A stretch of 36,034 nucleotides of DNA from Acidobacteriota bacterium (GTDB lineage: Bacteria; Acidobacteriota; UBA6911; RPQK01; JADFOI01), in the NCBI GenBank assembly GCA_036445815.1, contig JAZFRU010000057.1, positions 1 through 36,034 of the forward strand, written 5' to 3'. The notes below the pieces were generated by a model. That model did no database searches and was not told the origin of the DNA. It saw nothing but the letters and a program-made list of their open reading frames with translations. Positions 359 to 36,020 of the stretch are shown piece by piece. Made by a program: the position numbers and the translations under genes. Each line of letters starts with the position of its first letter. Positions within the stretch are counted from its first letter, which is position 1.

Positions 359-393
359 AATCCTGACCCGCTGGTCTTCGACCAGCGGTCAGG
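334..393 (-). terminator. Hairpin plus heptamer-array element downstream of the HEAT-repeat gene
   Basis: Hairpin CCTGACCCGCTGGTC-TTC-GACCAGCGGTCAGG (362-393) overlaps the stop codon; on the minus strand it is followed by TTCACGTTTAAGGTTTAACGTTTCACG (360-334). Terminator function is inferred. Confidence 0.55.
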
Positions 394-1210
394 GGTCAGC
401 TTCCTTCCCCACCCGGCTCTCGATCGCCTCATGGGTGAGGATTGCCTGATCTCTCACCTCTGGAACGAAACCGGGATCTTCCGCAATCGAACGAATGACT
501 TCGAGTTCCCCCGTGTCACCGACCAGGGCCAGGGCCCGAAGGGATTCCCAGACATGGCTGACATCCGGATAGAGTGTCAGCAGTTCCGTTCCCGCCTTGA
601 CCCCGGTGCCTGGCTCCAGGACCAGCGATTGGACAGAACTGGAGAGTGGAGAACGCACCTCGTGAAGATCACCCTGGCGGCTTACTCGAACCAGTGGATT
701 ACCCAGATGCACCTCTTCTCCCTCACTGACCAGATAATCAACCTCTCCGTCTACAGGCGCCCTCACGGAGTACGGCAATAACATGGCCCGTATTTCCTTC
801 AATCCCGATGGATCGCCAAAGCGGACCAGGGCCAGTGCGGCGTTGCGTCTTACCAGAAGCTCATCATCAGGAAGCATGCCAAGCAGGGCCTGGTGAAAGG
901 CATCGAAGGTGGGATCCTGTCCCATGACCCAGGCTGCAGTGACTCGAACCTGTGGAGTCGGGTGTTTCGAGTGTCGAATCACCTCCTCATACCACTGGGT
1001 GGCAGATGATTCACGTCGATCCATGAGTCCGGCTATCTGAGTGAGTGCATGCTGGACGCGGCGCGACTTCTCCTGGTCTTGCAGGTACTCGGTCAGTTCA
1101 GTGTCGGTGAGCAACCGCCCGAACCAGGTTCCATGCCAGGCGAAATAGGGAATGATCACACAGGCAAGCACTGCCGCGACAGCCCCCAGAAAGTAAAGAG
1201 TTCTTTTCAT
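389..1210 (-). CDS. Membrane-anchored HEAT-repeat protein with an inserted biotinyl/lipoyl-like barrel
   Basis: N-terminal hydrophobic helix; HEAT/PBS-type repeats (VRVTAAWVMG, VRRNAALAL, SLRALALVG); VRAPVDGEV...VSEGEEV...VRSP...G..V..G..L pattern of biotinyl/lipoyl domains. Confidence 0.8.
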   Translation of the reverse strand: MKRTLYFLGAVAAVLACVIIPYFAWHGTWFGRLLTDTELTEYLQDQEKSRRVQHALTQIAGLMDRRESSATQWYEEVIRHSKHPTPQVRVTAAWVMGQDPTFDAFHQALLGMLPDDELLVRRNAALALVRFGDPSGLKEIRAMLLPYSVRAPVDGEVDYLVSEGEEVHLGNPLVRVSRQGDLHEVRSPLSSSVQSLVLEPGTGVKAGTELLTLYPDVSHVWESLRALALVGDTGELEVIRSIAEDPGFVPEVRDQAILTHEAIESRVGKEADP

Positions 1211-1266
1211 CAGAATCGATCGGACACTATTACCTGCGGGAGGACCGCATCAAAGGAGGGAGGGAA

Positions 1267-1292
1267 AGTGGCCGCCCCGCTGGGCGGCCACT
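1267..1292. repeat. REP-like palindrome (TGGCCGC class)
   Basis: AGTGGCCGCCC-CGCT-GGGCGGCCACT, 11-bp stem; related to 267-289 and 33311-33333. Confidence 0.6.
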
Positions 1293-1293
1293 A

Positions 1294-1345
1294 TGTGAAA
1301 CGTTAAACCTGAAACGTGAAACGTGTCCGCTTCAGGAGCGGACAC
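1294..1345 (-). terminator. Hairpin plus heptamer-array element downstream of the cupredoxin lipoprotein gene
   Basis: 9-bp stem GTGTCCGCT/AGCGGACAC (1323-1345) 3 nt after the stop, then GTTTCACGTTTCAGGTTTAACGTTTCACA on the minus strand. Confidence 0.55.
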
Positions 1346-1348
1346 CGA

Positions 1349-2128
1349 TCATCCGGAATAGCCGAAGTCCACTTCCTGGCTCGAGTCGGGAGCAACCGTG
1401 ATCTGCTGCTCCTGAGCTCCGTACTTCTCGTGCCACACCTCGATCGTATAGTCGCCCGGAGGCAGGTCATTCAACGCGAAGGAGCCATCATCACCGGTCA
1501 CGGCAAAATAGGGATGCGGCACGACGGCAATGTAGGCCTTCATCCAGGGATGAATATTGCATTTGACCGGTATTGCAACCTCCGTCCGCGGAAAAGACCT
1601 CGTCATTTCCTGGCCGGAACTCTGTGAAATATTCCACTCCCGGTTATTGTCCGGTAAGGGATGGATGTTATGGGTGGCCGAATCGCTGTTCTGCATCTGG
1701 ATGTCCTGGCCGACCTGAACCCCCAATACGTGGGGAATGTAAAGGCAGCCATCCTGATTCAGCACGGCTGGCTCGGAAGGAGCCTGGAAGCTGTAGGGTT
1801 CCATGCCTCCCTTGATCCACACCAGGGCGTTCTTGAGGGTTCCATTGTCGTTGACGATGACATCAGAGGAATAGACAGGTTCTCCATGCTTGTCGTCGCA
1901 TGTGGGCTCTGCCCCCATACGAATGCGCGCCATTCTCGGGGCCTCCCCATCAAAGCTCACCTTGCCGGTCACGGAACCCGCCTGGGAAAGGTCAGGGGCA
2001 ACACCTGCCGAAGCTTCCGCGGCAGGTGCCTCCTCGCCTGTGGCCTCAGAGGCGGATTCTCCTCCTCCACCGCAAGCGGCAGTCACGCCTACCAAGAATA
2101 AAGCCATGTACAGTTTAGTTTTCACCAT
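1349..2128 (-). CDS. Lipoprotein with carboxypeptidase-regulatory-like beta-sandwich and cupredoxin-like domain
   Basis: Lipobox VTAAC followed by a Gly/Ala/Glu-rich linker; HNIH...CNIHPWM copper-ligand pattern; C-terminal GSFALNDLPPGDYTIEVWHE. Confidence 0.85.
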   Translation of the reverse strand: MVKTKLYMALFLVGVTAACGGGGESASEATGEEAPAAEASAGVAPDLSQAGSVTGKVSFDGEAPRMARIRMGAEPTCDDKHGEPVYSSDVIVNDNGTLKNALVWIKGGMEPYSFQAPSEPAVLNQDGCLYIPHVLGVQVGQDIQMQNSDSATHNIHPLPDNNREWNISQSSGQEMTRSFPRTEVAIPVKCNIHPWMKAYIAVVPHPYFAVTGDDGSFALNDLPPGDYTIEVWHEKYGAQEQQITVAPDSSQEVDFGYSG

Positions 2129-2188
2129 CTTTCTTCCTTTCTTGTCTGGTTAGATTATTTCTATAAGTACCAGGACTTGATACTTGAA

Positions 2189-5100
2189 TTATCTGCCCGT
2201 GAGTCGACGCTGCTCCGCGGCCGTGTACTGGAACATATATCGTACCATGAGTTCGGCATGGTCCTCGTCGTAGCCTCTCAAGCTGGGGACATCGGCCATT
2301 CCAAACACCCAACGGGCACCCTCCTGGCGAAAAAGGCCCGAGGGCATGTTGGTTCCGGGTCGAATAATCTCAGGATGGACAATCCATCTCTCGGTCCAAT
2401 CCGATTTCAGCCGGTCCGGGACCAGTAAGAAATTGGGAGCGGTGGCGTTCACATCGACGACCGGATCTCCCACCGCGTGGCACTTCAAACAGGGTGCTGC
2501 CGTATGGGTGAAAAGCTCTCTCGCCATGGCCAGTTCTCGTGAAGACAAAGGTTCCAGCACCGGTGCAGTATAGGGAAGGGGCTGTTCGGAGAAGGCCCCA
2601 AAGAAACGTACCAGCTGTTGAATCTCACGATCAGAAAAATCGAAAGTAGGCATGCGTGTCTCAATATAAGGACGAACCCCGTTACGATTGACGTCATCGT
2701 GACTCAAAGAGGGATTTCTCAGAAACTCCGCGAGCCAGTTCGGATCAACCCGGGCACCCTCACCGACCAGACTGGGAGGCAACTGTCCCCTCAAGTCAGG
2801 ATCCTGATAAAGAGGCAGGTCCTCCAGCACGGTGCTCTGGCCTGGACTGAACTCGTGACAGGCAACACAATTGTATTTCGTTACCAGCCACCAGCCTTTT
2901 TGAATGTCCTGTCGCTCGTCATCTGGTTGGTAGTGAAACTCGGGAGGGATCACGGACTCGACACTGCCCATCAAGAAGGTGGTCAGTTGTTGAATCTCCT
3001 CCTGGCTCAGATTGAAATTGGGCATTCGGAGTCGTTCCAGGGGTGCTTTGATCTTGTCCTGATCCCAGACGGCCGGATCTGCCAGTTTACGCTCGAAAAA
3101 GCCCTTCTGGTCATACCAGCCGCCCAGTTTGGCTTCATGGGTCAGCAGGGCAAAGTCGAGGCGTTCAATCGGCTTGCTGCCCTCTTTGGTGAGATCCGTG
3201 CCGATCTTTCCCTCATTTTCAAATCCACTGATTTCGTGACAACCCGCGCAGCCGAAATGCCGAACCAGGGCTTGCCCCTCCTCGGCCAGGGCCGGATCAT
3301 CCAGGTACTCCGCTTCAGGATATACGGCATCTTCATGGGTCTGCGTCATCAAATAGCTGGCGATATCCCTGGCTTCATCCCAGCCGAGGCGCAGATTAGG
3401 CATGATGGTGGGCTGCTGAACATGAAGGAGATGATCTCCCAGCGGGCATTGACGGTGCTGGAGATCGAACTCAAAAGGAAGTCCCTGGCTGGCATAATCT
3501 TCCGGAGTCATCTCTCTTTCATGGATCGGACAGTAGGGCAGAGTGCGTTCCTTGGGGTCGTGAATCCAACGCACCAGATAGTCGTAGTTGGCTTTTTCCC
3601 CCACCCGGCTCAGATTGGCGGCAAAGGTACCTCCGGTGTTCTGATCGCCCTCGCCAATGGAATGACAGGCCATACAGCCGCGTGTTTCAAAAAGGGTCTC
3701 ACCCTGGGCCGCATCTCCCGAGGGCTGCTGGGTCAGATTGCCTTCAATGCCAGATTGCCAGACATATGCTGAGAGGGCACGGACCTGCTGTTCGTCCAGG
3801 CGAAATTGCGGCATCTTGCTGTTGGGTCGAAAGTCGTGGGGATTGCTGATCCATGCCGGGATCCACTCCTTTTTAAGCTTCGTCCTCACTTCTTTGAGGT
3901 TGGGGCCTGTCTTTTTGACCTCAAGCACCAGGTCCGCTTCACGAACCTTCAGTCCGTTCAGTCGAGTATCGATATCGGCAATGTTTAGAGTGAGTACATC
4001 GGCCAGGGCGTAAAGTCGATCGGCCTCTTCATTGGTTTCGGCCTGATCCCCGGTATCGATGGCGCGCCGCATTTCCAGCTCGACCTCGTTTCTTGACAGC
4101 AACAGATCTGAAATGGATTTTTGAGCGTTCCTCAGAAGTCGAGGTTCCGACTCGAAACCTTCACGGGGATGACATCCCTGGCAGCCACGCTGATAAAAAA
4201 GCTGTTTTCCGGCATCCAAAGTGGGGGCTATTCCCAGACGCCGGTCTGCTTCGTGGCATTGCAGGCAGCCAGACTCGAAGTTCTCCTTCGCGTACATCGG
4301 CCACAACCAGTGTTTGTATCTGCCGTGACCCTCCTCGATTCCTACCGTGGCCACGCCATTACCATTGTGACAGGAAGAGCAGCCAAAGATCTCCGGATCA
4401 TGGATGTCCAACAGGAGACGATTGGAATGACTCGCAAAAAGAGGCTCTCCCCCCATGGCTTCCGGTGTCAAGACAACGGGCTCACGTACTCCGGCGTGGC
4501 AGGATTCACAACGGTCCACCCTCCCCATCTCGACGTTGTGAATCTGCTTGATCTCAACTCGGAAATTATCGAGTCGGGTCAACAGTCCATCCACCTGTGC
4601 TTCCGTGACACTGGTCAACCGGGCACCCGCATAGTTATTCAATTCCTGGCGAAGTTCGGTGGGTCTTCGGAGCAGTTCGACGGTGCGTCCCTGGAGCTCC
4701 CCTTGCAGAGCCTTCAGAGAATTGAACTCCTCTTCCAGTTCCCCATAAAGGTAACTCTTCTCCACCAGGGTCCCATCAGGCTCGGGAACTTCAACGAGAT
4801 AGGGGCCCGCCCGCAATTCGTCCAAGTCTTCCTGCAGACCGGACTTGCTGGAATCACCGGCCGTTTCAAGCAGATAGACGGCGGCCTGAAGGCGGCTGCG
4901 CGCCGTGGTAAAGGGCTTGCTGATGGCGGCCAGCCGGGGCCTCAGGAGGCTTTCTTCCTGCTCCACCTCAGACAACTGCTCCTCAACTGCGGCCTCAGCT
5001 TCCTGGAGGGCCTGTTGCAGTTCCAGGTACCCCTCGGAACCATAGATCTCAGCCTCTTCCTGGGCACGCAGTGGCTTCATCTCGGTGAGTGCCCCCCGGT

Positions 5101-5302
5101 AGACTTCAATAAAGTCCCTCTGGTATCCATCCCAGGGGCGCAACCCCAGGACTTCGTCGTACAGAGCCCATACCAGCGTCAGGATCAGAAGCACCGAAAA
5201 GATAGCAATGGGAGCAGCCAGAGAGGACGTGGCAATGGGATCCTCTTTGGGAACCAGTGGGTCTTCAGGCTGAGACGGGAGCGGCTTGTTTGAGTCACTC
5301 AT
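2189..5302 (-). CDS. Membrane-anchored octaheme cytochrome c (cytochrome c subunit of the Rieske/cyt b complex)
   Basis: Eight CxxCH motifs (CESCH, CSSCH, CLQCH, CQGCH, CMACH, CAGCH, CVACH, CLKCH) and one N-terminal TM helix. Start moved to ATG 5302, which forms an ATGA overlap with the upstream stop. Confidence 0.9.
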   Translation of the reverse strand: MSDSNKPLPSQPEDPLVPKEDPIATSSLAAPIAIFSVLLILTLVWALYDEVLGLRPWDGYQRDFIEVYRGALTEMKPLRAQEEAEIYGSEGYLELQQALQEAEAAVEEQLSEVEQEESLLRPRLAAISKPFTTARSRLQAAVYLLETAGDSSKSGLQEDLDELRAGPYLVEVPEPDGTLVEKSYLYGELEEEFNSLKALQGELQGRTVELLRRPTELRQELNNYAGARLTSVTEAQVDGLLTRLDNFRVEIKQIHNVEMGRVDRCESCHAGVREPVVLTPEAMGGEPLFASHSNRLLLDIHDPEIFGCSSCHNGNGVATVGIEEGHGRYKHWLWPMYAKENFESGCLQCHEADRRLGIAPTLDAGKQLFYQRGCQGCHPREGFESEPRLLRNAQKSISDLLLSRNEVELEMRRAIDTGDQAETNEEADRLYALADVLTLNIADIDTRLNGLKVREADLVLEVKKTGPNLKEVRTKLKKEWIPAWISNPHDFRPNSKMPQFRLDEQQVRALSAYVWQSGIEGNLTQQPSGDAAQGETLFETRGCMACHSIGEGDQNTGGTFAANLSRVGEKANYDYLVRWIHDPKERTLPYCPIHEREMTPEDYASQGLPFEFDLQHRQCPLGDHLLHVQQPTIMPNLRLGWDEARDIASYLMTQTHEDAVYPEAEYLDDPALAEEGQALVRHFGCAGCHEISGFENEGKIGTDLTKEGSKPIERLDFALLTHEAKLGGWYDQKGFFERKLADPAVWDQDKIKAPLERLRMPNFNLSQEEIQQLTTFLMGSVESVIPPEFHYQPDDERQDIQKGWWLVTKYNCVACHEFSPGQSTVLEDLPLYQDPDLRGQLPPSLVGEGARVDPNWLAEFLRNPSLSHDDVNRNGVRPYIETRMPTFDFSDREIQQLVRFFGAFSEQPLPYTAPVLEPLSSRELAMARELFTHTAAPCLKCHAVGDPVVDVNATAPNFLLVPDRLKSDWTERWIVHPEIIRPGTNMPSGLFRQEGARWVFGMADVPSLRGYDEDHAELMVRYMFQYTAAEQRRLTGR

Positions 5303-6240
5303 ATGTTGAACCAGGGAGTTACCATGACGTACTTGACCCGGAACAGCAATCGGAGAAAGATCTTCACCGGAAGCCCCCACATGATGACCAGGAAAGTCTG
5401 CATGGTGAGGTATTGCACCAGGGTCATACGCTCATATATTTTTCGGTTGAATTCATTCCATGTAATTAGTTTGTGGGTCAGCCAGCCAAAAACGGCGAAG
5501 TAAAGTCCGACGGCGGCCGCACCGACCAGACCGACCCAGGGCTGACCTGCCGTGATCCCCAAAATTTCATGAAGATCCCGGTTGGTTTCAAAAACCAGCC
5601 GGTGGTGATCCCAGGTCTCACCCGGCCAGAACCACATCCATCCCGGCCCGCGGATAAACGTGCCGATGAACACCATGACCAGCCATAAGACCAGAAAACC
5701 AAACCCGAAGGTCAAAATCGCGAACTTACGCTGACGGAATGTGTAATAACCGTTCCCCAGTGGATTGAGGTCGATGTAGGGAATGACCATCAATCCGACC
5801 ACGATCAGGGAGGGCATCAAAACCCCGGCAATCCAGGGATCGAAATAGACCAGCATCTCCTGCAGGCCCAGAAAGTACCAGGGCGCCTTGGAGGGGTTCA
5901 TGGTCAAATTTGGATTGGCCGGCTCTTCCAGGGGGGCGTTGAGCGTAATCGACCAAACCATGAGAATCACCGTGACCACGATGGCCGCAAAGAACTCCAC
6001 CTTCAGCAGGTGAGGCCACACATAGACCTTTTGCTCCCATTCCTCCCGGTAGGGTTCGGTCTTCCGGTGGTGGGTCTTGGCCAGGACCTTATCCTTTTCT
6101 AACCGGTCGATCAGGCGATCATTGGCCAGGGCCTGCCTGAATCCGTACCAGGTAAAGAAAGGGACCAGAAACAGAAGCGCCACGATCGGAACATTGTCGG
6201 GTTTAGAAGCAATTTCCCAGAGCTGAGCCCAATCAAACAT
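5299..6240 (-). CDS. Cytochrome b C-terminal subunit (subunit IV/PetD-like) with N- and C-terminal extensions
   Basis: WPHLLKVEF, APLEEPANP and KAPWYFLGLQE (PEWY-equivalent position); several TM helices; GGAGG RBS upstream. Confidence 0.85.
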   Translation of the reverse strand: MFDWAQLWEIASKPDNVPIVALLFLVPFFTWYGFRQALANDRLIDRLEKDKVLAKTHHRKTEPYREEWEQKVYVWPHLLKVEFFAAIVVTVILMVWSITLNAPLEEPANPNLTMNPSKAPWYFLGLQEMLVYFDPWIAGVLMPSLIVVGLMVIPYIDLNPLGNGYYTFRQRKFAILTFGFGFLVLWLVMVFIGTFIRGPGWMWFWPGETWDHHRLVFETNRDLHEILGITAGQPWVGLVGAAAVGLYFAVFGWLTHKLITWNEFNRKIYERMTLVQYLTMQTFLVIMWGLPVKIFLRLLFRVKYVMVTPWFNI

Positions 6241-6330
6241 CTACTGAGTAACCTCCTCCCTCATCCATCGGGTTGAGGGACCTAAAACGAGTGAATGGAC
6301 CATGAACTTCATACCGGTAAAACCAGAACC

Positions 6331-7257
6331 TCATTTACGAGGAAACTTCATTTCCCTTTCCAACACCACGGGGGCAGGACCGGAGATACTCCCATCTTTA
6401 CGCACGCGCCAGAAATGGACTGCAAGAAAGATCGAAATCAACAGGGGAAGCGCGATGCAATGCCAGATGTAGGCACGCAACAGGGCGTTCGCGTCCACGA
6501 TGGATCCTCCCAACAGTGCAAAGCGTACGTCGTTGAAGGCCGTCATGCCCAACTGGGGTCCGAATGGACCTTCATGTCCCAACAGCGGCGTCGCCCGGGC
6601 CATGTTGGTGCCCACGGTGACGGCCCAGAATCCCAACTGGTCGTCAGGCAGCAGATAACCCGTGAAAGACAGGAGCAACGTCAACACCAGGCAAATCACG
6701 CCCACCGCCCAGTTGAATTCTCGAGGGGGCTTATAGGAGCCGGTCAGGAAGACCCGCAGCATGTGAAGCCAAACGGTGATGACCATCAGGTGGGCGCCCC
6801 ACCGATGCATGTTCCGCATCAAGCCTCCAAAGGGAACATCGTTATGCAGATACATGATGTCCAGGTAGGCCTGTCCCTTGGTGGGATGGAAGTAAAACAT
6901 CAACAAGACACCGGTAAGCGTCAAGACGATGAACAGATACAGAGTAATGCCACCCATCCCCCAGGTGAAACTGAACCGGACCGCATCCCGATTGACCTTG
7001 GCCGGGTGAACATGAAGAAAGACGTTGGTCAAGACGGCCAGAGCTTTGTTGCGGGGGGAATCGTCCAGTTTGTGGCGAAACACAGACTTCCACAGCTGGG
7101 TCGAACGGTATTCCTTGGCGGCCTTGAGATCCGCCTGCCCTTTGGCTTGAACCGATTGCAGCCCCTCTTTCAGACGATCAATCAGAGAGGGAGGTTGCGG
7201 TGAACGTGCTTCTTCCGAAGGGGCTTCCGGTACGGTGGGTTTCTCGTCGTTTGCCAT
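6331..7257 (-). CDS. Cytochrome b N-terminal subunit (b6/PetB-like)
   Basis: [65 protein letters not shown] heme b ligand helices. Confidence 0.93.
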
Positions 7258-7295
7258 GATCTGGTTAGTCGCGGAGGAGTCTCGGAAATTTCAGG

Positions 7296-7856
7296 TTAAA
7301 CGGTTATGAAAGAACCATCCTCTCCAAACTTACAGGGGGCTCCGGGTGGGCATTGATAGAGCGTGCTGGTGTCGACCACGATCTGCCCTTCAGCATCGAG
7401 TTCCACCTTGGCTCGATCCAGGGGCCGCGGCGCCGGCCCCTCAAAGTTGTAGCCTTCAGTGTCGTATCCGCTTCCGTGACAGGGGCATTTGAACTTGTTT
7501 TCGCTTTCGACCCAGTCGGGCGTGCAACCCAGATGGGTGCACTTGGCGAAAATAACAAAAATCCCCTGGGTCGTACGCACCACCCAGACCCGATGTTCCT
7601 GCTGGAACCGGGTGTCCACACCAAATCCAAAATCTGCAGGGAACCCGATGCGGAAGGTCGTTTTGGGCTCAAACAGGATCCGAGGGAAGAAAAACCGCAC
7701 GATCATCAGAGTATTGGCGCCAAGGAATCCCCAGATGGAGGCCCAGGAGATGAGCCTGAAGAAGTTGCGTCTCTGGATGAGTTTCTTTTCTTCCAGGGCT
7801 TGCGAATCCTCAGAAACAGCCGCTTCGGTGGTGGTCTCAGTGTTATTTTCTGCCAT
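7296..7856 (-). CDS. Rieske [2Fe-2S] subunit of a quinol:cytochrome c oxidoreductase
   Basis: CTHLGC and CPCHGS boxes, GPAPRPL, twin-arginine RRNFF followed by a TM helix. Confidence 0.95.
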   Translation of the reverse strand: MAENNTETTTEAAVSEDSQALEEKKLIQRRNFFRLISWASIWGFLGANTLMIVRFFFPRILFEPKTTFRIGFPADFGFGVDTRFQQEHRVWVVRTTQGIFVIFAKCTHLGCTPDWVESENKFKCPCHGSGYDTEGYNFEGPAPRPLDRAKVELDAEGQIVVDTSTLYQCPPGAPCKFGEDGSFITV

Positions 7857-7966
7857 AGTCGTCGCTGAGCAAATTACTTCTTAACCTACAATCCAAATGG
7901 GGAAGTGAGGGCAGTCCTCAACTGCAGACGCACTCACCACTAGGTATCCCCTCAGACGAGTACAAC

Positions 7967-7994
7967 ATGATAGCGAGTCTGGGGAATCTGTCAA
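7967..7994 (-). promoter_or_regulatory. Putative sigma70 promoter for the Rieske/cyt b module
   Basis: Minus strand TTGACA (7994-7989), 16-nt spacer, TATCAT (7972-7967), in the 153-bp gap upstream of the Rieske gene. Confidence 0.55.
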
Positions 7995-8009
7995 GCGCCT
8001 TTTCTCTGG

Positions 8010-8291
8010 TCAATTCTGATCGTGTCGAAAGGCAACAATCACGATCGAGGACATGAGTATCAGCGGGGGAAACAGAAGCACTAGAATGCCTAAATTGATG
8101 GCATCGAGGGTACTTTCCGCCTGACCAATCAAAGCCGTCTTGCACAGCGGACAGGACTGCGCCAAAGCCGGAGAGGAGAGCAGAAGAACAATAGAGCAAA
8201 AGAGCCAGGGAACGAGCGAGTGCCGGATCCACCATGATCGTCCAGCCGGAAGCAAATCGACGAAGAAGGTCTTCTTTCGTTTCATGATCAT
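8010..8291 (-). CDS. Small CxxC membrane protein of the oxidase cluster
   Basis: Signal-like segment ending PALA-Q, then SCPLC, then one TM helix (INLGILVLLFPP); same strand as the cluster. Exact start uncertain (8291 or 8285). Confidence 0.7.
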   Translation of the reverse strand: MIMKRKKTFFVDLLPAGRSWWIRHSLVPWLFCSIVLLLSSPALAQSCPLCKTALIGQAESTLDAINLGILVLLFPPLILMSSIVIVAFRHDQN

Positions 8292-8313
8292 CTGGTCCGA
8301 TTACACTTTTGAG

Positions 8314-8610
8314 TTATTGACGAAATTCCAGAAGCCTCAGGCCATCGGGAAAAACAATGAACATCATGGCAATGCAGAAGGCCACCGCAGGAATAATGGT
8401 AAGAACCAGGCTGCTCCTCTCGTAGCGCAGATGCATGAAATAGGCGACGATCAACCCTGTCTTCCCGAAGGAGAGCAGCAACAGCAGACCCAGCATCAGG
8501 GTCACCGACAGGGACTGGTAGGCCAGCAGGACCTCGACCACCGTCAGGATTAACAAGGCCGACCAAACCATCATGATCAGTTTATTATTGTTGTCATGGT
8601 CTGAACTCAT
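8314..8610 (-). CDS. Cytochrome c oxidase subunit IV family protein
   Basis: Three TM helices with LTVVEV and K.GLIVAYFMHLRYE motifs; directly follows the subunit III genes. Confidence 0.88.
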   Translation of the reverse strand: MSSDHDNNNKLIMMVWSALLILTVVEVLLAYQSLSVTLMLGLLLLLSFGKTGLIVAYFMHLRYERSSLVLTIIPAVAFCIAMMFIVFPDGLRLLEFRQ

Positions 8611-8646
8611 CTTCTACCCTCTTTCTCTCTGTTGTTCTGTTGCAGC

Positions 8647-9270
8647 CTACATCTGGTTTGACAGCAGGTACACCATGGGAAAAATGAACATCCACACCAG
8701 ATCAACGAAATGCCAGTACAGCCCACTGACCTCCACGTCATCCGCGTTATATTTACCCTTCCCAAGGCCGTAGGCCACGATGGCCAGGTACACCACACCG
8801 CCGGTCACGTGGGTCATGTGCAAGCCGGTCAGCGTAAAGAAGGAGGCCCCAAAAAGAGGGACGCCCCAGGGGTTGCCAAAGGGGGTGACCCCTTCGTGGA
8901 TCAATTCCAACCACTCATTGATGTGGAGAATCATGAAAAGCAATCCGCCGGTTATGGTAGCCATAATCCAGATGACGGCTCGCCTCATTTCCTGCCGCTT
9001 GGCTGCTGCCACAGCCAGCACCATGGTCAGGGAACTGGAGAGCAGGCAAAAAGTCATCACGGTGGCCATGAAGATATTGAATCCGCCAAAGGGTCGGGGC
9101 CATTCCACGTTGGACAGACGCAGATAACTGTAGGCGATCAAGAAAGCGGTAAAGGTCAGTGTGTCGGACATGAGGAACAGCCACATGCCCAGCTTATTGG
9201 AACTGACCGCATAAGGAGATCCTCCTCCGCCCCAGGCGGAGACTCTGGTGTCGCTCACAACTTCAGCCAT
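8647..9270 (-). CDS. ctaE: Heme-copper oxidase subunit III (second copy, CoxP-like)
   Basis: KLGMWLFLMSD, TFCLLSSSLTM, FFTLTGLHMTHV, GLYWHFVDLVW. Confidence 0.9.
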   Translation of the reverse strand: MAEVVSDTRVSAWGGGGSPYAVSSNKLGMWLFLMSDTLTFTAFLIAYSYLRLSNVEWPRPFGGFNIFMATVMTFCLLSSSLTMVLAVAAAKRQEMRRAVIWIMATITGGLLFMILHINEWLELIHEGVTPFGNPWGVPLFGASFFTLTGLHMTHVTGGVVYLAIVAYGLGKGKYNADDVEVSGLYWHFVDLVWMFIFPMVYLLSNQM

Positions 9271-9273
9271 TCA

Positions 9274-9924
9274 TTACCTCCAAAACAAAAGCAGCCCAAA
9301 GAGATAAACCCACAATCCGTCCATAAAATGCCAGTAGAGTGAGGTCACACCCAGGATGGTGGCGATGGAAGTGTTTGAGGTTTTCCATCGAATCTTCCAG
9401 GAGATGTACAAAAGCGCCACCACACCCCCCAGGAGATGGATGCCGTGGGTCGCCGTTAAAACGTAAAAGAAGGAACTACTGGGATTCGTACCCACGTACA
9501 CACCCTCGTTGATCAGCTGCAGCCAGGCCAGGATCTGCCCGGCCAGGAATGCCGCCCCCAGGGCCGTTGTCGCCCACCACCAGTTCTGGAAGTGGCCGGT
9601 GCTCCCGTAACCTCGCCGCGCCTTTTCCAGGGTAAAGCTGCTGACCAGCAAAACAAGTGTGTTGGCCCATAAAATACCGGGAAGAGTCGTTGCCTGCCAG
9701 TCATCGGAGATACCACTGCGAACCACCAGGGCGCTGGTGAAGGCGGCAAACACCATCAGTATGGCACCCAGCCCTAACATCATCCCGGTATAGTAGCGAT
9801 GTTCCGGGACAGGGCGTCCTTCACTCCGACCATCGTGACCGGAGCCACCTGGATCAAAGTTCTCCCGGTTGCCTCCCGGCGGCACAGGTCTTTTATCGGG
9901 CATCGGCGGTGCAATCGTCGCCAT
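9274..9924 (-). CDS. ctaE: Heme-copper oxidase subunit III (first copy, CoxO-like)
   Basis: NTLVLLVSS, FLAGQ, FFYVLTATHGIH, YWHFMDGLW. Confidence 0.9.
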   Translation of the reverse strand: MATIAPPMPDKRPVPPGGNRENFDPGGSGHDGRSEGRPVPEHRYYTGMMLGLGAILMVFAAFTSALVVRSGISDDWQATTLPGILWANTLVLLVSSFTLEKARRGYGSTGHFQNWWWATTALGAAFLAGQILAWLQLINEGVYVGTNPSSSFFYVLTATHGIHLLGGVVALLYISWKIRWKTSNTSIATILGVTSLYWHFMDGLWVYLFGLLLFWR

Positions 9925-9927
9925 GGT

Positions 9928-11703
9928 CTAACCCTCTGTCTTCTCCGGCGCCGTCTGCATGGTGAAGTCCTCGGACTCACCCGGCACACTGTATTCATAG
10001 GCCCCGCGATACACGACAGGCAATTTGCCGGCGAAGTTATCATGGGGTGGAGGTGAGGGAATTCCCCATTCCAAAGTGGTGCAATCCCAGGGATTCATCT
10101 CCGCCTTTTTCCCCCGGAAGAGACTCCAGAAGAGATTGGCGAGAAAAAGGGCCTGAGCCGCAATGGTGATGAAGGCCGCCACCGTGATGAACTGATGAAG
10201 CGGCATCAACGGCTCCAGGAAATCAAACCCGGTCAATTCGGGATAGCGACGCGGCTGACCCTCCATGCCCAGAAAATGCATCGGCATGAAAATGGCATAC
10301 ACACCCACAAAGGTAATCCAGAAGTGCACTTTCCCCCAGAACTCGTTTAAATGCCGGCCGAACATCTTGGGAAACCAGAAATAGGACCCGCCGAACATCC
10401 CGAAAATGGCGGCCACGCCCATGATCAAGTGAAAGTGCCCCACCACGAAGTAGGTGTCGTGTAAAAAGATGTCGGTGGAGGGTTGATTCAAAAACAGGCC
10501 CCCCAGCCCACCGGTGACGAACAGGGAAACAAATCCAAGTGCGTACAGCATGGCGGTCGTGAGGCGAATGCTGCCCCCCATGATGGTCCCCAGCCAGTTA
10601 AAGGTCTTGATGGCGGACGGGACGGCAATGGCCGTGGTAATCGTGGCGAACAAAATGGCCGTGTAGGGACTCATTCCACTCATGAACATGTGATGCCCCC
10701 ACACCATGAACCCGAGAATGCCGATGGCAAACATGGCGTAGACCATGGCTTTGTAGCCAAAAATCGGCTTGCGGGCAAAGGTGGAGAGGATCTGAGAGGC
10801 CACCCCCATGCCGGGAAGAATGGCGATGTAGACCTCGGGATGTCCGAAGAACCAGAAGAGGTGTTGCCAAAGCAGTGGCGAGCCTCCCTTGTGGTCGATC
10901 AGCTGATCGCTGACCACCAGCCCTCCAGGGATGAAGAAACTGGACCCCGCCATCCGATCCATCAGTAAAAGAACTCCCGCGGACAATAAAACCCCGAAGG
11001 CCAGTAACCCCAATATGGCCGTCACAAACCAGGACCAGACCGTCAGGGGCATCCTCATCAAGGTCATCCCCTTGGTTCGTAAGTCAATGGTGGTGGCGAT
11101 AAAATTCAGGGCCCCCAGCAGAGCGGCGATACAGAAGATGGCGATGCTGATGATCCAGAGATTCTGCCCCATTCCCAGGCCAGGTCCTGCGATCTCACCC
11201 AGGGCGCTCAGCGGCGGATAGGCCGTCCATCCCGAAATCGGGGGTCCGCCCGTGACAAAAAAGGCCGCCATCAGAACCATCAGAGCCAGTAAAGTGAGCC
11301 AGAAGGAGAGCATGTTCAGGATCGGAAAGGCCATGTCGTCCGCGCCGATCTGGATGGGAAGGAAATAGTTTCCAAAACCGCCCTGAGGCGCGGTGGTCAG
11401 GACGAAAAAGACCATGATGGTTCCGTGCATGGTCAAAAAAGAAAGATAGAATTCCGGGGTCATGACCCCGCCCGGAGCACCCACCGGGAAGAAGGTTTCT
11501 AAAAGCGGAAGCTCCGTCCCCGGCCAGACCAGGTTGAAACGTATGAAGATCGAAAGGACCATCCCCACGATCACGGAGAAAAGGGCCAGGAAGTAGTACT
11601 GAATACCGATGACCTTGTGATCGGTACTGAAAACGTACTTTCGAATGAAGCTGGTGGGAGCCTCATGATGGACGGCATGGGTTGCTGGGGCGGCTTCTGC
11701 CAT
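9928..11703 (-). CDS. ctaD: Cytochrome c oxidase subunit I, A1 type
   Basis: TDHKVIG, HGTIM, DMAFP, WFFGHPEVY, VWGHHM, AVPSAIK, HDTYFVVGHFH, PRRY. Confidence 0.97.
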   Translation of the reverse strand: MAEAAPATHAVHHEAPTSFIRKYVFSTDHKVIGIQYYFLALFSVIVGMVLSIFIRFNLVWPGTELPLLETFFPVGAPGGVMTPEFYLSFLTMHGTIMVFFVLTTAPQGGFGNYFLPIQIGADDMAFPILNMLSFWLTLLALMVLMAAFFVTGGPPISGWTAYPPLSALGEIAGPGLGMGQNLWIISIAIFCIAALLGALNFIATTIDLRTKGMTLMRMPLTVWSWFVTAILGLLAFGVLLSAGVLLLMDRMAGSSFFIPGGLVVSDQLIDHKGGSPLLWQHLFWFFGHPEVYIAILPGMGVASQILSTFARKPIFGYKAMVYAMFAIGILGFMVWGHHMFMSGMSPYTAILFATITTAIAVPSAIKTFNWLGTIMGGSIRLTTAMLYALGFVSLFVTGGLGGLFLNQPSTDIFLHDTYFVVGHFHLIMGVAAIFGMFGGSYFWFPKMFGRHLNEFWGKVHFWITFVGVYAIFMPMHFLGMEGQPRRYPELTGFDFLEPLMPLHQFITVAAFITIAAQALFLANLFWSLFRGKKAEMNPWDCTTLEWGIPSPPPHDNFAGKLPVVYRGAYEYSVPGESEDFTMQTAPEKTEG

Positions 11704-11722
11704 AGTTAATCTCTCCTACCTT

Positions 11723-12508
11723 TTAGAATTCCGACTGTTCCCTGAGCCATTCAGCGTAGTCTTCTTCCGAGAACACATCGATGAAACTTCTCATCCGGTG
11801 ATGGCCCAGGCCGCACAACTCGGCACAGGCAATCTCGTACTTGCCGAGTTTCGTTGCCGTGAACCTGAGGGGAATGACCATTCCGGGCAAGGTGTCCTGC
11901 TTCACCCGCAGCTCTCTCACGGAAAACGAGTGGGTGACATCCTTGGAGCGGAGCAACAACTCAATGGGGCGATTCACCGGAACCGCCATGGTGGGAATAA
12001 CGATGTCGTCCTCACCCGCAGGATCGTCCGGATCCAGTCCCAGAGGGTTCCCTCCGGAATCATCGATCAGTTCCGGCACGGTTGCTCCGAACTGACCGTC
12101 AGGGCCCGGGTAGCGAATGTTCCACGCAAACTGCTGTCCCGTCACTTCAATTTGAAGGGCACCCTCGGGGGCAGCTTGGATGTACATGTCGATCCAGACC
12201 TGGAATCCCAGCAGCACCATGGCATAAAAAAGCACGGTGGTGGCAGTGGTCCAGATGATTTCCATCTTGTCGTTCCCATGGCTGTAGGTGGCCTTGTGAC
12301 CGGGCCGCTCACGGTAACGGACGATGAAATACCCCAGCGCGACCTGGGCGAGAACAAAGATGAAGCCCGTGACGACCAGCGTGACCACGAACTGGATATC
12401 CAGCTGGGCCCCATGAGCTGAGGCCGACTCAGGAAACCACCAGACACGTCCCGCAAACAGAATGACGCTGATCAGGGTGATGATCCATATGGTAATGGCC
12501 AGTAGCAT
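11723..12508 (-). CDS. ctaC: Cytochrome c oxidase subunit II (CuA), no fused cytochrome c domain
   Basis: DVTHSF and CAELCGLGHHRM CuA ligands; EIIWT; no CxxCH motif. Confidence 0.95.
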   Translation of the reverse strand: MLLAITIWIITLISVILFAGRVWWFPESASAHGAQLDIQFVVTLVVTGFIFVLAQVALGYFIVRYRERPGHKATYSHGNDKMEIIWTTATTVLFYAMVLLGFQVWIDMYIQAAPEGALQIEVTGQQFAWNIRYPGPDGQFGATVPELIDDSGGNPLGLDPDDPAGEDDIVIPTMAVPVNRPIELLLRSKDVTHSFSVRELRVKQDTLPGMVIPLRFTATKLGKYEIACAELCGLGHHRMRSFIDVFSEEDYAEWLREQSEF

Positions 12509-12577: not shown

Positions 12578-12606
12578 ATTCTACCCATCCAATCAAAGAT
12601 TTTCAA
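12578..12606 (-). promoter_or_regulatory. Putative sigma70 promoter of the oxidase operon
   Basis: Minus strand TTGAAA (12606-12601), 17-nt spacer, TAGAAT (12583-12578), ~70 nt upstream of the subunit II start. Confidence 0.55.
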
Positions 12607-12862: not shown

Positions 12863-13858
12863 TCAAGGATTTTCGGACCCAGCTTCAACCGCTTCTTTCG
12901 ATTCTGTGGTGAGATGATCGATTTCCAGTCGCCCAAAACAACCTTCGGCTTGCGCCATGATCCAGTCGGCAATGATGGGATGGGGCAGCAGGGCGCGTCC
13001 GTCACTCACATACTCCAGCCCTTCCAGAACTTCAGAATAGGGACCGAAGCCGAAAACTCGGAAAGGAACCACCAGGACCTTGTTCCCCTGTCGCCCCTCT
13101 TCCTGAACAAATGACCTGATTTGCGCCTCGGCCTCAGCACGCTTGTCGCCCCAATCCTCGCGAAGTGTCTCCACACGGACCTGGCGGAAGGGGCCAGTCT
13201 CACGAACCTGGGTGGCCAGCTCATCCACCCGGGAAACCCACTGGGAATCGATGTCGTTGTCGCCCTCTCCATGGGCCAGAATGAGAACCGACTCCTTCTC
13301 GGGTTCTGTGCTCAAGACGGCCACGCGTTCCACAATGATTCGCCCGATGGCGGCAGAGTCGTAAAGACCTTCCCGGTTCAGTAGTAGGATGGCAACTCTT
13401 TGGATCGGGGAGGGAGCCTGGTTGCCGGGAATCATCTCGATGTGATGACTCATGCTCAGATCTCCTCCACCGTGGTGGTGCAAGTACTGAACAGGAGGCT
13501 CAGAACGCAGACCCAGTAGATACTCGGTCTGCTCCCTGAAGGACTGGGAAGAGACGAAAAGGCCGACCGCCGCAATGTGGGTCACCCCTTCGGCTTCTAA
13601 TTCCTGAACGGCCTTTTGCAAGGGGCCGGGCTGCGCCATCCCAAAGGCGATGCGAACCGGCGAAATCGAACGGAGAGGGGCTATAGATTCCACGACAGCG
13701 GCATTCCACTCGGGCGAACCGCCATGGGCCATCACCAGGATTCCTGTTTTCACTCCAGCTTCGGCCGGCTGGGTGCCGGTGACGGGAAGAATCGAAACAA
13801 GGGAAACAGATAGCAGTACGATTAGGGGTCTCACGAGCATTCCTTCCATGGCTTTCAT
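12863..13858 (-). CDS. CbiX/SirB-like (class II) chelatase-fold protein with signal peptide
   Basis: Two repeats with LVMAHGG and LILAHGEG motifs, His-rich linker HHHGGGDLSMSHH, N-terminal hydrophobic segment ending AEA. Start probably 13858 (alternatives 13849, 13840). Confidence 0.75.
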   Translation of the reverse strand: MKAMEGMLVRPLIVLLSVSLVSILPVTGTQPAEAGVKTGILVMAHGGSPEWNAAVVESIAPLRSISPVRIAFGMAQPGPLQKAVQELEAEGVTHIAAVGLFVSSQSFREQTEYLLGLRSEPPVQYLHHHGGGDLSMSHHIEMIPGNQAPSPIQRVAILLLNREGLYDSAAIGRIIVERVAVLSTEPEKESVLILAHGEGDNDIDSQWVSRVDELATQVRETGPFRQVRVETLREDWGDKRAEAEAQIRSFVQEEGRQGNKVLVVPFRVFGFGPYSEVLEGLEYVSDGRALLPHPIIADWIMAQAEGCFGRLEIDHLTTESKEAVEAGSENP

Positions 13859-14043
13859 GTGTTGGTCCCCATCAAAGGGGCATTCTCCACGGCCAGGCCA
13901 CAAACTCCAAAGACTTCAGGCTTGGAGAAACGACCGTCCGATACACCATCCAAAAAGATATCATACTCAATCCTAACGCCCCCTCCAGGGAGATGAATAC
14001 CGACCTGTAAAATCTTACCCCGTAACGTGAGATACTGAGGCCG

Positions 14044-19678: not shown

Positions 19679-19787
19679 GCTTTTTTTCACTAAACTCATG
19701 AGTCCATCCTTGCTCTTGAAGCTTTCTCTCTCCTGCTAATGAATCCCTGAATTGTGCCTTGTAGGCACTCTTGTTCATCAGAGCTCT

Positions 19788-34184: not shown

Positions 34185-36020
34185 TCAACTGGATTTCTGT
34201 TTCCCCGCGGCTCCTCGGCGGCGGACGACCCTAAGTTTGGATTTCCGGGAACCTTCCGCCTGGGCTGCCTCCTGGTCGGAGGGATAGGCAATTCGATGGT
34301 GCGCCGTGCTTTTGAGGATGTGCGTCACCGTGCCTTCGATTTTCTTCAATTCCCCGATGGTCAGACCCGATTGGTCAAGCTCTCCCTGCTCTAACTTTCG
34401 GTTCACCAGGCGGCTGACCAGATTGCGGATCGTCTCGTCGTCACGATTCTGTACCACCCGGCAGGCCGCCTCGCAGGAATCCACGATCATCACAATGGCC
34501 GTTTCCCTGCTCTGAGGTTTCGGTCCGGGGTACTTGAAGACCTTTTCCGATTTGATCTCCGACTCCAGTTCCTTGGATTTGTGATAGAAATAGTCGATCG
34601 TTGAGGTGCCATGATGCTGAGGTATGAAATCTTCCACGGCACCGGGCAGGCCGATCTGCCGAGCCAGCTGAACCCCCATCGTCACATGAGAACGGAGCAC
34701 CGCAGCTGAAGCGATCAAACCCAGCGACTCATGCAGATTCTCTCCTGCCACCTGATTTTCAATAAAGTACTCCGGACTGAACATCTTGCCGATATCATGG
34801 TAATAGGATCCCACCCGCACCAGAAGACTGTTCGCACCAATTTCGTTGGCCACGCTTTCCGAGATGTTGGCAACCGCCATGCTGTGCTGGTAGGACCCCG
34901 GCGCCTTGAAGAACAGTTCCTTGAGTACCGGTGCATTCAAATCCAGCAACTCCATCAATCGAAAGGGGGAAGTGAAATCGAAAAGGCGTTCAAACACTGG
35001 AAGAAAAATCAGCGTGAGAAGAGCCGCGATGATGCCGTTGGTCAGGGCGGCCACCGCATTGGGAAGGGCGTCGGCGAAGCTTCCTCCGGTCAAGACCAAC
35101 TCGCAAAGAAACACGAAAGCCATCACCAGCCCCACCATGAGCGAAGCCGCCATCAACTCACTGCGTCTGCGTGCCTGCCGCACCCAGCTTCCACTGACCA
35201 GCCCCCCAGAGAGCAACACCAGAAAAAGCCCAAAATCGAATTGTGAGGCCAGCGAGACATAAATCAGAGTAATCAACATGATCAACGGAACGATACGCCG
35301 GTTAATGAGAACCGTGATCGTCAAACCCGCCCAGGGGACCGGGATCAGATAGGGCGAGAATACTTCATAGAAAAGGGCCACTTTGGCGCAGATCAGAACG
35401 ATCAGAATTGTCAAATAAATGAGTACCAGATTCTTATTCTTCTCGGTGCTGCGGGGATACAGAAAGTTCGTGTGGTAGAGCAAGATGAGCGTGAATATGG
35501 TCACAATGAGCAGCGTTCCCAGAACGCTTTCAGGACCCACGCTTTCTCGATATTTCAACGCTTCCCGAACCAACCTGCGATCCGAAACGGTGACCCGCTG
35601 TCCCTTGGGTACCAGCAATTCATGACGGGCAATAAGTCTCCCCTGAAACTCAAAAGCGGCCGGGGCACGATAGGCAATCCAGGATTCGCTCTGAACTGCC
35701 GGGGGAGAGTAGGGGGCAGTCAGGTTCTCAAAGAAAAGAATCAAGAAGACACAGGGAATCACCAAAGATGTGATAATCCAGGCCAGATATGGAATTCCAT
35801 ACAGGGCAAGACGCGCGGGAAGCAGTTCCTGATCCTTGAGCACCTTCTCGGAAACGTCACCTGCCTCCATATCCGGGATGGCGGTACCTTCCAATTTGCG
35901 GATCAAGCCCTTGGCCGAGTGCATCTGACGGGAATGCCGGAGACGGAGAACTCCCAGGATGACACCAAAAATCGCCACTCCGATGATGATGGCGACCGAG
36001 TACTGGTAAATCTCAGCCAT
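34185..36020 (-). CDS. Second 7TM-HD (HDIG) membrane phosphohydrolase
   Basis: APGSYQHS, YYHDIGK, PQHHGT, FKYPGPKP, MIVDSCEAA; multiple TM helices; AGGAG RBS before ATG 36020. Confidence 0.9.
   Translation of the reverse strand: MAEIYQYSVAIIIGVAIFGVILGVLRLRHSRQMHSAKGLIRKLEGTAIPDMEAGDVSEKVLKDQELLPARLALYGIPYLAWIITSLVIPCVFLILFFENLTAPYSPPAVQSESWIAYRAPAAFEFQGRLIARHELLVPKGQRVTVSDRRLVREALKYRESVGPESVLGTLLIVTIFTLILLYHTNFLYPRSTEKNKNLVLIYLTILIVLICAKVALFYEVFSPYLIPVPWAGLTITVLINRRIVPLIMLITLIYVSLASQFDFGLFLVLLSGGLVSGSWVRQARRRSELMAASLMVGLVMAFVFLCELVLTGGSFADALPNAVAALTNGIIAALLTLIFLPVFERLFDFTSPFRLMELLDLNAPVLKELFFKAPGSYQHSMAVANISESVANEIGANSLLVRVGSYYHDIGKMFSPEYFIENQVAGENLHESLGLIASAAVLRSHVTMGVQLARQIGLPGAVEDFIPQHHGTSTIDYFYHKSKELESEIKSEKVFKYPGPKPQSRETAIVMIVDSCEAACRVVQNRDDETIRNLVSRLVNRKLEQGELDQSGLTIGELKKIEGTVTHILKSTAHHRIAYPSDQEAAQAEGSRKSKLRVVRRRGAAGKQKSS

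Follow-up and report, generated by a model that had tools for sequence, protein, structure and literature searches.

Do two sets of respiratory genes that stand side by side in an acidobacterial genome encode separate complexes, or the two ends of a single route from quinol to oxygen? The question is raised by contig C57 (JAZFRU010000057.1), the whole 36,034 bp of which form the window analysed here. The contig belongs to genome G000, an assembly of 3.03 Mb in 478 contigs that is rated 95.7% complete and 1.0% contaminated, and whose relatives are labelled Acidobacteriota. At positions 389–12508 lie twelve open reading frames, all on the minus strand and separated by short gaps, which make up two respiratory modules and a gene for a HEAT/barrel-sandwich protein. 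An earlier reading of the sequence alone, referred to below as the original prediction, had described them as twelve co-oriented genes in which a haem-copper oxidase is joined to a Rieske/cytochrome b complex, together with three accessory genes (for a CxxC protein, a cupredoxin lipoprotein and a HEAT/lipoyl-fold protein). All twelve frames are present on the expected strand, as are the three accessory genes, and the union of the two complexes is borne out by the Pfam families COX1, COX2, COX3, COX4_pro, Rieske, Cytochrome_B and Cytochrom_B_C. Acidobacteriota are among the most abundant bacteria of soils and sediments, and almost all that is known of their respiratory chains comes from annotation.

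The answer proposed here, which we think somewhat probable, is that the two adjacent modules act in series as one quinol-to-oxygen branch. Module 1 would be a coxMNOP-like A1-type haem-A oxidase, and module 2 a b6-like Rieske/split cytochrome b complex of the 'APWY' kind whose c-type subunit is an octahaem cytochrome. If the octahaem complex is a dedicated feeder of the haem-A oxidase, the pair would form a main aerobic energy route of the organisms that carry it. Below, we describe the conservation of the gene order, then the proteins themselves, the proposed electron path and its alternatives, and finally the relation of the locus to known systems.

Conservation of the gene order

Eighty loci were fetched from species genomes by way of an alignment of relatives of the octahaem cytochrome, and all proteins of the window were compared with these loci. 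Relatives of this cytochrome were found in no fewer than 584 species-level genomes of the contig collection. The genes for the Rieske protein and for the N- and C-terminal halves of cytochrome b (Rieske-bN-bC) precede the octahaem gene in all loci that reach at least 2.8 kb upstream (64/64). Directly downstream of the octahaem gene stands that of the cupredoxin lipoprotein, in 77 of the 78 loci that reach at least 1.1 kb in this direction, the one miss being L009. An arrangement that recurs in these proportions is above chance, and Rieske-bN-bC-octahaem-cupredoxin is a near-invariant five-gene core. There is a further link to the synthesis of haem A: in 68 of 71 loci the cupredoxin gene is followed on the same strand, at less than 1.5 kb, by the start of ctaA/ctaB. 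L001, L012 and L051 do not fit, and in the last two an oxidase operon intervenes between the cupredoxin gene and ctaA.

The distribution of the oxidase was followed in a sample of the phylum comprising 401 genomes (the tallies include the unpublished G024, G049 and G152). The octahaem protein is matched at E ≤ 1e-30 in 124 of these; 41 have a full-length orthologue, a count read from the octahaem match table, and the remainder carry a paralogue of about 970 residues. The expectation that homologous clusters would be found in other Acidobacteriota was thus correct, such clusters being common there on both counts (80 loci; 124/401 genomes). Among the 41 genomes with a full-length orthologue, a CoxIIIa homologue lies within about 7 kb in 27. 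It is upstream in all 18 of these that belong to the order of the window; in the other nine, from other families, it is downstream. The second arrangement is seen at its most complete in L109, where Rieske-bN-bC-octahaem-cupredoxin-ctaA-ctaB-coxII-I-IIIa-IIIb-IV-CxxC follow one another on one strand. Adjacency that is kept when the order of the modules is reversed, taken with the ctaA/ctaB link, is good evidence that the bc-type complex serves a haem-A oxidase.

A gene-neighbourhood survey had been put forward as a check on whether all twelve genes travel together. They are not one conserved unit, and the fixed core is only the five genes named above. The accessory genes, which had been expected to co-occur with the cluster, divide accordingly: the cupredoxin gene does belong to the bc core, whereas the CxxC gene follows the oxidase and the HEAT gene follows a pair encoding an ABC-2 permease and a DUF420 protein.

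The Rieske/cytochrome b genes and the octahaem cytochrome

The Rieske 2Fe-2S protein (186 aa; 7296–7856, minus strand; Pfam Rieske) has a twin-arginine signal ahead of its transmembrane (TM) helix. Both cluster-binding boxes are present, box I as CTHLGC at residue 106 and box II as CPCHGSGY (CPCHGS at 124); box I is kept in 72/72 relatives and the S...Y pair of box II in 68/72. In the account of Baymann et al. (2012, PMC3509893), an SY box is associated with potentials of about +300 to +350 mV, and from this box the Rieske centre of the window is predicted to be of high potential.

Cytochrome b is split. Its N-terminal half is a b6-like protein of 308 aa (6331–7257, minus strand; Pfam Cytochrome_B, E 3.6e-39), to which the nearest solved chains are cytochrome b6 (E 1.6e-41). 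Residues H151, H165, H266 and H281 align with the paired haem-ligand histidines of the cytochrome b6 chain 2zt9_A, and the position of the haem-ci cysteine is taken by glycine, the sequence WGMGG being found in 69/72 relatives. The C-terminal half is an enlarged subunit-IV-like protein of 313 aa (5299–6240, minus strand; Pfam Cytochrom_B_C) with some six TM-like segments, in which the Qo motif reads APWY at residue 120, as it does in 75 of 78 relatives. The Rieske boxes with their export signal, the four b-haem histidines and this variant of the Qo motif place the complex in the bc1/b6f superfamily. It is not a cytochrome b6f proper: the haem-ci cysteine is missing, and an octahaem protein stands in place of cytochrome f. 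The nearest NCBIfam names for the two halves are those of Geobacter ExtP and ExtQ, which we have not adopted since both scores are below the cut-offs (261 versus 290 bits and 46 versus 150 bits).

The octahaem cytochrome c itself (1037 aa; 2189–5302, minus strand) matches the Pfam families Cytochrom_C and Cytochrome_CBB3 together with Cytochrome_C7 and MtrC-like ones. Its gene starts at the ATG at 5302, so that it overlaps the stop codon of the subunit-IV gene by ATGA, and not at 5380 as had been supposed. The count of eight haems in the c-type subunit is upheld; there are exactly eight CxxCH motifs, all of them invariant in 12 aligned relatives. A single N-terminal TM helix is followed by a stretch of about 200 residues with no haem motif, which we assume to be helical, and then by the haem region, where four closely spaced CxxCH motifs precede four that are spread across class-I-like domains. 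Five Met-Pro motifs lie downstream of haem sites and could supply methionine ligands; judged from these motifs, three haems are probably bis-His and five His/Met ligated. The family profile gave no match in the PDB, where the protein has no solved relative, and no biochemical or structural study of the system was found in the literature, in agreement with the original prediction, to which no biochemical characterisation was known.

The paralogue of about 970 aa deserves mention in its own right. In the three loci fetched (L106–L108, from G069, G258 and G367) it comes after Rieske-bN-bC and has eight CxxCH motifs. It matches residues 460–990 of the octahaem protein and is 29–37% identical to it over the C-terminal half. 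This form occurs in other acidobacterial families, and the cupredoxin gene is next to it in L106, not in L107 or L108.

The cupredoxin lipoprotein

The fifth gene of the core (1349–2128, minus strand) encodes a lipoprotein of 259 aa. Its lipobox is at Cys19, and some 30 residues of low-complexity linker lead to a type-1 cupredoxin domain, which is embedded in a CarboxypepD_reg-like beta-sandwich. CarboxypepD_reg is its sole match in Pfam, where no cupredoxin family was matched, and its relatives are named 'plastocyanin' by JGI and 'carboxypeptidase regulatory-like' by NCBI. The lipobox cysteine is conserved among relatives, and C77, C128, H153, H156, C190, H193 and M196 are invariant in 36 aligned sequences. 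Among these residues is a full type-1 ligand set, H153/C190/H193/M196, with the spacing C-x2-H-x2-M. An AlphaFold2 model of the protein (mean pLDDT 87.4) was compared with the PDB by Foldseek, and matched amicyanin, plastocyanin and pseudoazurin with TM-scores by target of about 0.6–0.7; further matches in this range were a Nitrosopumilus cupredoxin and the cupredoxin domain of Thermus NirK, with 5fc9 among the top matches. Weak sequence matches to blue copper proteins also align the ligand motifs. The invariant H/C/H/M set, the model and its fold matches bear out the earlier view of the protein as a blue-copper lipoprotein, with a predicted copper site, and we infer that its role is that of an electron carrier.

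A paralogue is found in the same genome at 3585–4247 (minus strand) of contig C392. It is 32% identical, is cut by the contig end and adjoins the gene of an unrelated 252-aa lipoprotein, not cytochrome genes.

The oxidase module

CoxII (261 aa; 11723–12508, minus strand; Pfam COX2 and COX2_TM) has two or three N-terminal TM-like segments and a CuA domain; its score against the NCBIfam CoxB model, 144.8 bits, is slightly below the cut-off of 147.7 bits. The CuA motif C-x-E-x-C-x3-H-x2-M is present at residue 228, which implies that electrons are taken from a periplasmic donor and not from quinol. The protein contains no CxxCH. The enzyme is therefore not of the caa3 type, in which a cytochrome c domain is fused to subunit II, and on this point the original prediction was right. 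CoxI, the A-type catalytic subunit (591 aa; 9928–11703, minus strand; Pfam COX1, E 3.9e-142), has at residue 287 of helix VI the motif GHPEV, which we take to be the marker of an A1-type oxidase. The COX1 fold, the helix-VI glutamate motif and the CuA site of subunit II together assign the enzyme to the A1-type haem-copper oxidases.

Subunit III is encoded by two half-size genes. The first is CoxO-like (216 aa; 9274–9924, minus strand) and matches Pfam COX3 and an NCBIfam aa3 CtaE/CyoC-like model; the second is CoxP-like (207 aa; 8647–9270, minus strand) and is assigned by Pfam COX3 (E 3.7e-16) and NCBIfam. A split subunit III matches the 'coxOP' operon type described in PMC6018796. Subunit IV (98 aa; 8314–8610, minus strand; Pfam COX4_pro, E 1.6e-12) has three TM-like segments by hydropathy.

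The remaining gene of this module (8010–8291, minus strand) encodes a small membrane protein of at most 93 aa with a signal/TM helix, a periplasmic CxxC motif and a C-terminal TM helix, which matched no family in Pfam or NCBIfam. A homologue lies directly after coxIV in 11 of the 12 oxidase-bearing loci, on either side of the bc module (L002, L004, L006, L008, L012, L016, L051 and L109 are among them). Since it follows coxIV whichever side the oxidase takes, the CxxC gene closes the oxidase operon. In the family, (G)C-x-x-C is conserved right after Ala-Gln, and Pro-Pro occurs in the C-terminal TM helix. A cytochrome with a CxxCK-type site was considered and ruled out, as the residue after CxxC is K, R, A or Y in relatives. 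To judge from these features, the protein may be either a small subunit of split-subunit-III oxidases or a copper/thiol assembly factor.

Proposed electron path and its alternatives

If the two modules act in series, the path may be set out as follows. Quinol would be oxidized at the Qo site, and the first electron would pass to the predicted high-potential Rieske cluster and run along the eight haems of the membrane-anchored octahaem cytochrome. From there it would reach CuA by way of the tethered, amicyanin-like cupredoxin and/or directly, and then haem a and the a3/CuB site, where oxygen would be reduced. The second electron would be recycled through the two b haems. The direction of flow is inferred; the SY Rieske box and the Met-Pro motifs after five haem sites fit a high-potential chain.

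It is less certain that the partners form a lasting complex. Stable association of the octahaem bc complex with the oxidase, as a putative supercomplex, is a tentative suggestion that we think is probably not correct. Still more doubtful is the specific version in which the octahaem Rieske/cytochrome b complex, the tethered cupredoxin and the coxOP-type oxidase make up one stable particle, the copper protein forming a putative bridge to CuA and the CxxC protein and the enlarged subunit IV serving in docking. Such a particle, if it exists, would match in bacteria the SoxM supercomplex of archaea, with an eight-haem wire in addition and with a high-potential Rieske centre.

Several observations weigh against a single branch. 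CoxI was found within the locus in just 10 of the 80 fetched loci, to which L002 adds a partial oxidase where its contig ends, and in 8 of the 50 related loci that have at least 9 kb on both flanks. Of the 41 genomes that have a full-length octahaem orthologue, 14 have the oxidase homologue at a distance or on another contig. The cupredoxin-lipoprotein family is spread more broadly than the octahaem family (208 versus 124 of the 401 genomes), often in several copies, and with its paralogues is thus not specific to the octahaem complex. A point in favour of the branch, on the other hand, is that in six genomes (G041, G096, G132, G081, G278 and G369) a cupredoxin homologue lies no more than 6 kb from one of CoxIIIa, although the octahaem-family gene is located on a different contig; this ties the family to the oxidase as well. 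There is also a sigma-70-like promoter match at 7967–7994 (minus strand; 11/12 positions), in the 153-nt gap ahead of the Rieske gene. A promoter-like site between the modules would suggest two transcription units. A second match lies upstream of coxII (12578–12606, minus strand; 10/12 positions). However, a promoter/terminator scan of the region gave counts of 7 and 17, against 6.2 and 15.1 in shuffles, and both sites are to be treated as leads only, the counts being no higher than chance would give.

The genome, moreover, offers other routes. Contig C36 (L103 1–3793) holds a second A-type oxidase operon, with a CoxI of 606 aa that is 54% identical to that of the window, a subunit III split over two half-size genes, and subunit IV; coxII is cut by the end of the contig. 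On contig C423 (L104 541–3752, minus strand) are genes for a Rieske protein of 159 aa, an unsplit cytochrome b of 359 aa and a multihaem cytochrome of 531 aa, so that the organism has two different complex-III-like modules. Class-I cytochrome c domains are matched on other contigs of the genome, eleven over the Pfam cut-off outright and a twelfth only with its neighbours in frame. Among these are at least five small monohaem cytochromes c of 117–171 aa, each with a signal peptide or a lipobox. A bd oxidase was not found in G000. The second oxidase, the second Rieske/cytochrome b set and the small cytochromes c mean that other electron routes exist. The original prediction had pointed out that no soluble monohaem cytochrome is encoded here, and had proposed a differently built quinol-to-oxygen chain in which diffusible cytochrome c is replaced. 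No small cytochrome c gene is present within 389–12508, and the branch as such is plausible; for the genome as a whole the statement fails, and the lack of a diffusible cytochrome c holds inside the cluster only.

These findings are the ground of the strongest alternative, namely that the modules are independent neighbours, electrons passing by way of diffusible or separately anchored monohaem cytochromes c, while the octahaem and cupredoxin proteins feed several acceptors. It draws on the small cytochromes c, on the second oxidase and second Rieske/cytochrome b complex, on the genomes in which the oxidase is not adjacent and on the promoter-like site between the modules, itself not above shuffle level. 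We nevertheless consider it unlikely. Adjacency is retained in two gene orders and in 27 of the 41 genomes; ctaA/ctaB follow the cupredoxin gene in all but three loci; and the cupredoxin gene is fixed beside the octahaem gene.

A second alternative concerns the lipoprotein only. It might be a copper-delivery or CuA-assembly factor, with the octahaem cytochrome donating directly to CuA, as could be suspected of a gene that lies where the redox genes give way to those for cofactor biogenesis (ctaA, ctaB, ABC-2 and DUF420) and has paralogues beside oxidase operons that lack a bc module. We regard this role as improbable, given the complete and invariant type-1 ligands (His, Cys, His, Met) and the best fold matches, all of them electron-transfer cupredoxins (amicyanin, plastocyanin and pseudoazurin). 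The CuA chaperones known to us use motifs other than the type-1 ligand set.

Least probable of all, and in our view a slender chance, is that the complex runs in reverse or splits the flow, a high-potential periplasmic donor feeding the cupredoxin and octahaem proteins and, through them, the oxidase downhill and the quinone pool uphill: the cluster and the related loci examined contain no outer-membrane porin-cytochrome or substrate-oxidizing enzyme, and the module occurs commonly in genomes labelled as Terriglobales and Bryobacterales, lineages whose cultured members are, as far as known, organoheterotrophs. In its favour is a resemblance to the rus/pet system of Acidithiobacillus ferrooxidans: a cluster in which a blue copper protein is combined with a multihaem cytochrome, an aa3 oxidase and ctaA/ctaB is reminiscent of the rus operon tabulated in PMC10654088. 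Kao and Hunte (2014, PMC4122944), moreover, link the APWY motif to reverse running, so that complexes of this type may operate in that direction; this too counts against a branch that ends at oxygen.

Biogenesis genes and other features of the contig

The last of the twelve genes (389–1210, minus strand) encodes a membrane-anchored protein of 273 aa in which HEAT repeats (Pfam HEAT_2, 39.4 bits) are combined with a barrel-sandwich domain of the biotin/lipoyl-like kind. The Biotin_lipoyl match is borderline, at 21.9 bits versus a cut-off of 22.1 bits, and Atlas clusters share the architecture; the earlier assignment to a HEAT/lipoyl fold agrees with both sources. The protein is probably periplasmic, and probably a factor of oxidase biogenesis rather than a redox subunit.

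Its usual neighbours are an ABC-2 permease and a DUF420 protein, the latter of what we take to be the CtaM family, required for the function of aa3 oxidases. These two genes stand directly before the HEAT gene in 5/5 genomes of the window's order, at 12–62 kb from the cluster, and DUF420 is no more than 1.5 kb from the HEAT gene in 36 of 46 HEAT-bearing loci (90 loci were examined). In L063 the order is ...cupredoxin-ctaA-ABC-ABC2-DUF420-HEAT. The ABC-2 and DUF420 genes are a probable oxidase-biogenesis unit, to which the HEAT gene probably belongs. The HEAT gene of the window, like that of L001, adjoins the cupredoxin gene without this unit. No DUF420 gene was found in G000, at 95.7% completeness; the contig breaks off 388 nt beyond the HEAT gene, and one ctaA gene is present in the genome.

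It should be noted that the permease, DUF420 and HEAT genes form a fixed trio (L113–L117; L063 17036–19591). In genomes of the window's order this trio lies 12–62 kb from ctaA, ctaB and the gene for an ABC ATPase, which remain by the bc module, while in Terriglobales-type loci all are contiguous. In loci of the latter type (L063 5969–7066 and about 35 others) a ferrochelatase gene is found directly upstream of the Rieske gene, and there the bc module is flanked on both sides by haem synthesis genes.

Upstream of coxII, at a distance of 354 nt, is a gene (12863–13903, minus strand) for a protein of 346 aa with a signal peptide and a weak match to CbiX, a class II chelatase. It was considered as a member of the system and dropped, having no counterpart in the 80 related loci. 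The remainder of the contig consists of housekeeping genes (fatty-acid synthesis, succinyl-CoA synthetase and similar). Two paralogous genes on it encode 7TM-receptor/HD-hydrolase (7TMR-HD) proteins, at 19752–22154 (plus strand) and 34185–36020 (minus strand).

Comparison with known systems

The main idea is, in outline, already in print: superoperons joining complex III to an oxidase (PMC8407424), octahaem operons (PMC3578206) and an acidobacterial instance (PMC6018796) have each been described. All the parts are of known kinds, and the value of the locus is that of a well-defined, testable target rather than of a surprise. Four features are unnamed in the literature consulted, namely the cupredoxin as fixed fifth gene, the ctaA/ctaB link, the coupling to a coxOP-type oxidase and the CxxC protein, although bioRxiv supplements could hold them.

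By description, the core resembles the octahaem operons. Luecker et al. (2013, PMC3578206) report in Nitrospina gracilis a Rieske/split cytochrome b operon with an 'atypical octaheme cytochrome c', and the same operon structure in 'Ca. Kuenenia stuttgartiensis' and 'Ca. Methylomirabilis oxyfera'. These operons share with the window the order Fe-S protein, b6-like protein, subunit IV and octahaem cytochrome, the last replacing c1 or f; subunit IV is enlarged in both, and in those organisms too the whole complex is biochemically uncharacterised, as far as these sources go. The Kuenenia complexes modelled in PMC12954380 have an enlarged subunit IV and large multihaem subunits with long helices. 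They also carry an NAD(P) oxidoreductase subunit, whereas none is encoded among the twelve genes of the window or in their flanks. The window cluster for its part differs from the three described operons in the addition of the cupredoxin lipoprotein and the adjacent aa3-type oxidase.

By motif, the complex resembles the 'APWY clade' of PMC4122944 and the groups A1/A2 of PMC3509893, which likewise have a Qo motif APWY and a split cytochrome b; an example from the acidobacterium 'Ca. Solibacter usitatus' is given in both papers. Most APWY sequences described in PMC4122944 read WCMGG, with a possible haem-ci cysteine, whereas the family of the window reads WGMGG. That paper favours reverse operation for the clade, while the gene context in the window points to the oxidase. 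A dedicated link to the oxidase, if confirmed, would bear on the function of APWY-type complexes and on the use that the phylum makes of a predicted high-potential Rieske centre.

Within the Acidobacteriota, Trojan et al. (2021, PMC8407424) describe 'bc1-A1 caa3 superoperons' and suggest supercomplexes that bypass soluble carriers. In these, as in the window, an A1-type oxidase operon lies directly upstream of complex III genes. The superoperon, however, runs ctaCDEF-petC-petA-petB-catG with an unsplit petB and so contains another type of bc complex, compared with the Rieske, split cytochrome b, octahaem and cupredoxin genes found here. In Table S2d of Hausmann et al. (2018, PMC6018796; bioRxiv 10.1101/197269), the metagenome-assembled genome (MAG) SbA1 is listed with a Rieske protein of 212 aa, a cytochrome b6 of 319 aa, a subunit IV of 316 aa and a cytochrome c of 1090 aa, the same architecture as the core of the window. 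The coxOP-type oxidase is classed by these authors as the type that lacks complex III genes in its neighbourhood; the two are adjacent in the window and in 26 further genomes of the sample. Neither 'plastocyanin' nor 'cupredoxin' occurs in those supplementary files of the two studies that were searched.

The use of a copper protein between a Rieske/cytochrome b complex and an oxidase has its precedents among archaea, in SoxM with sulfocyanin and in the haloarchaeal cluster of halocyanin with Rieske and split cytochrome b (PMC4122944, PMC3509893). In both cases a type-1 copper protein provides the link, and the haloarchaeal cluster shares with the window a high-potential Rieske protein of the SY kind and a split cytochrome b that lacks the haem-ci cysteine. 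As described in these papers, the archaeal systems have no c-type cytochrome, whereas in the window eight haems c stand between the Rieske and copper proteins. They differ also in lineage and in the architecture of the copper protein, which here is a lipoprotein with a beta-sandwich module.

Finally, the obligate actinobacterial bcc-aa3 supercomplex, solved structures of which are among the PDB matches of the b6-like protein, has in common with the window a multihaem c-type subunit, an aa3 oxidase, a CoxII without fused cytochrome c and the idea of a hard-wired path. In Actinobacteria this path is built from a dihaem QcrC and an unsplit cytochrome b; a copper protein is lacking, and the genome encodes no soluble cytochrome c. 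The window has eight haems and a split cytochrome b, and its genome does not share the actinobacterial lack of a diffusible carrier, since class-I cytochromes c, several small ones among them, are encoded on other contigs. If the octahaem complex does feed the haem-A oxidase as proposed, complexes III and IV would here be wired in a third way, the other two being soluble cytochrome c and the dihaem bridge of Actinobacteria.

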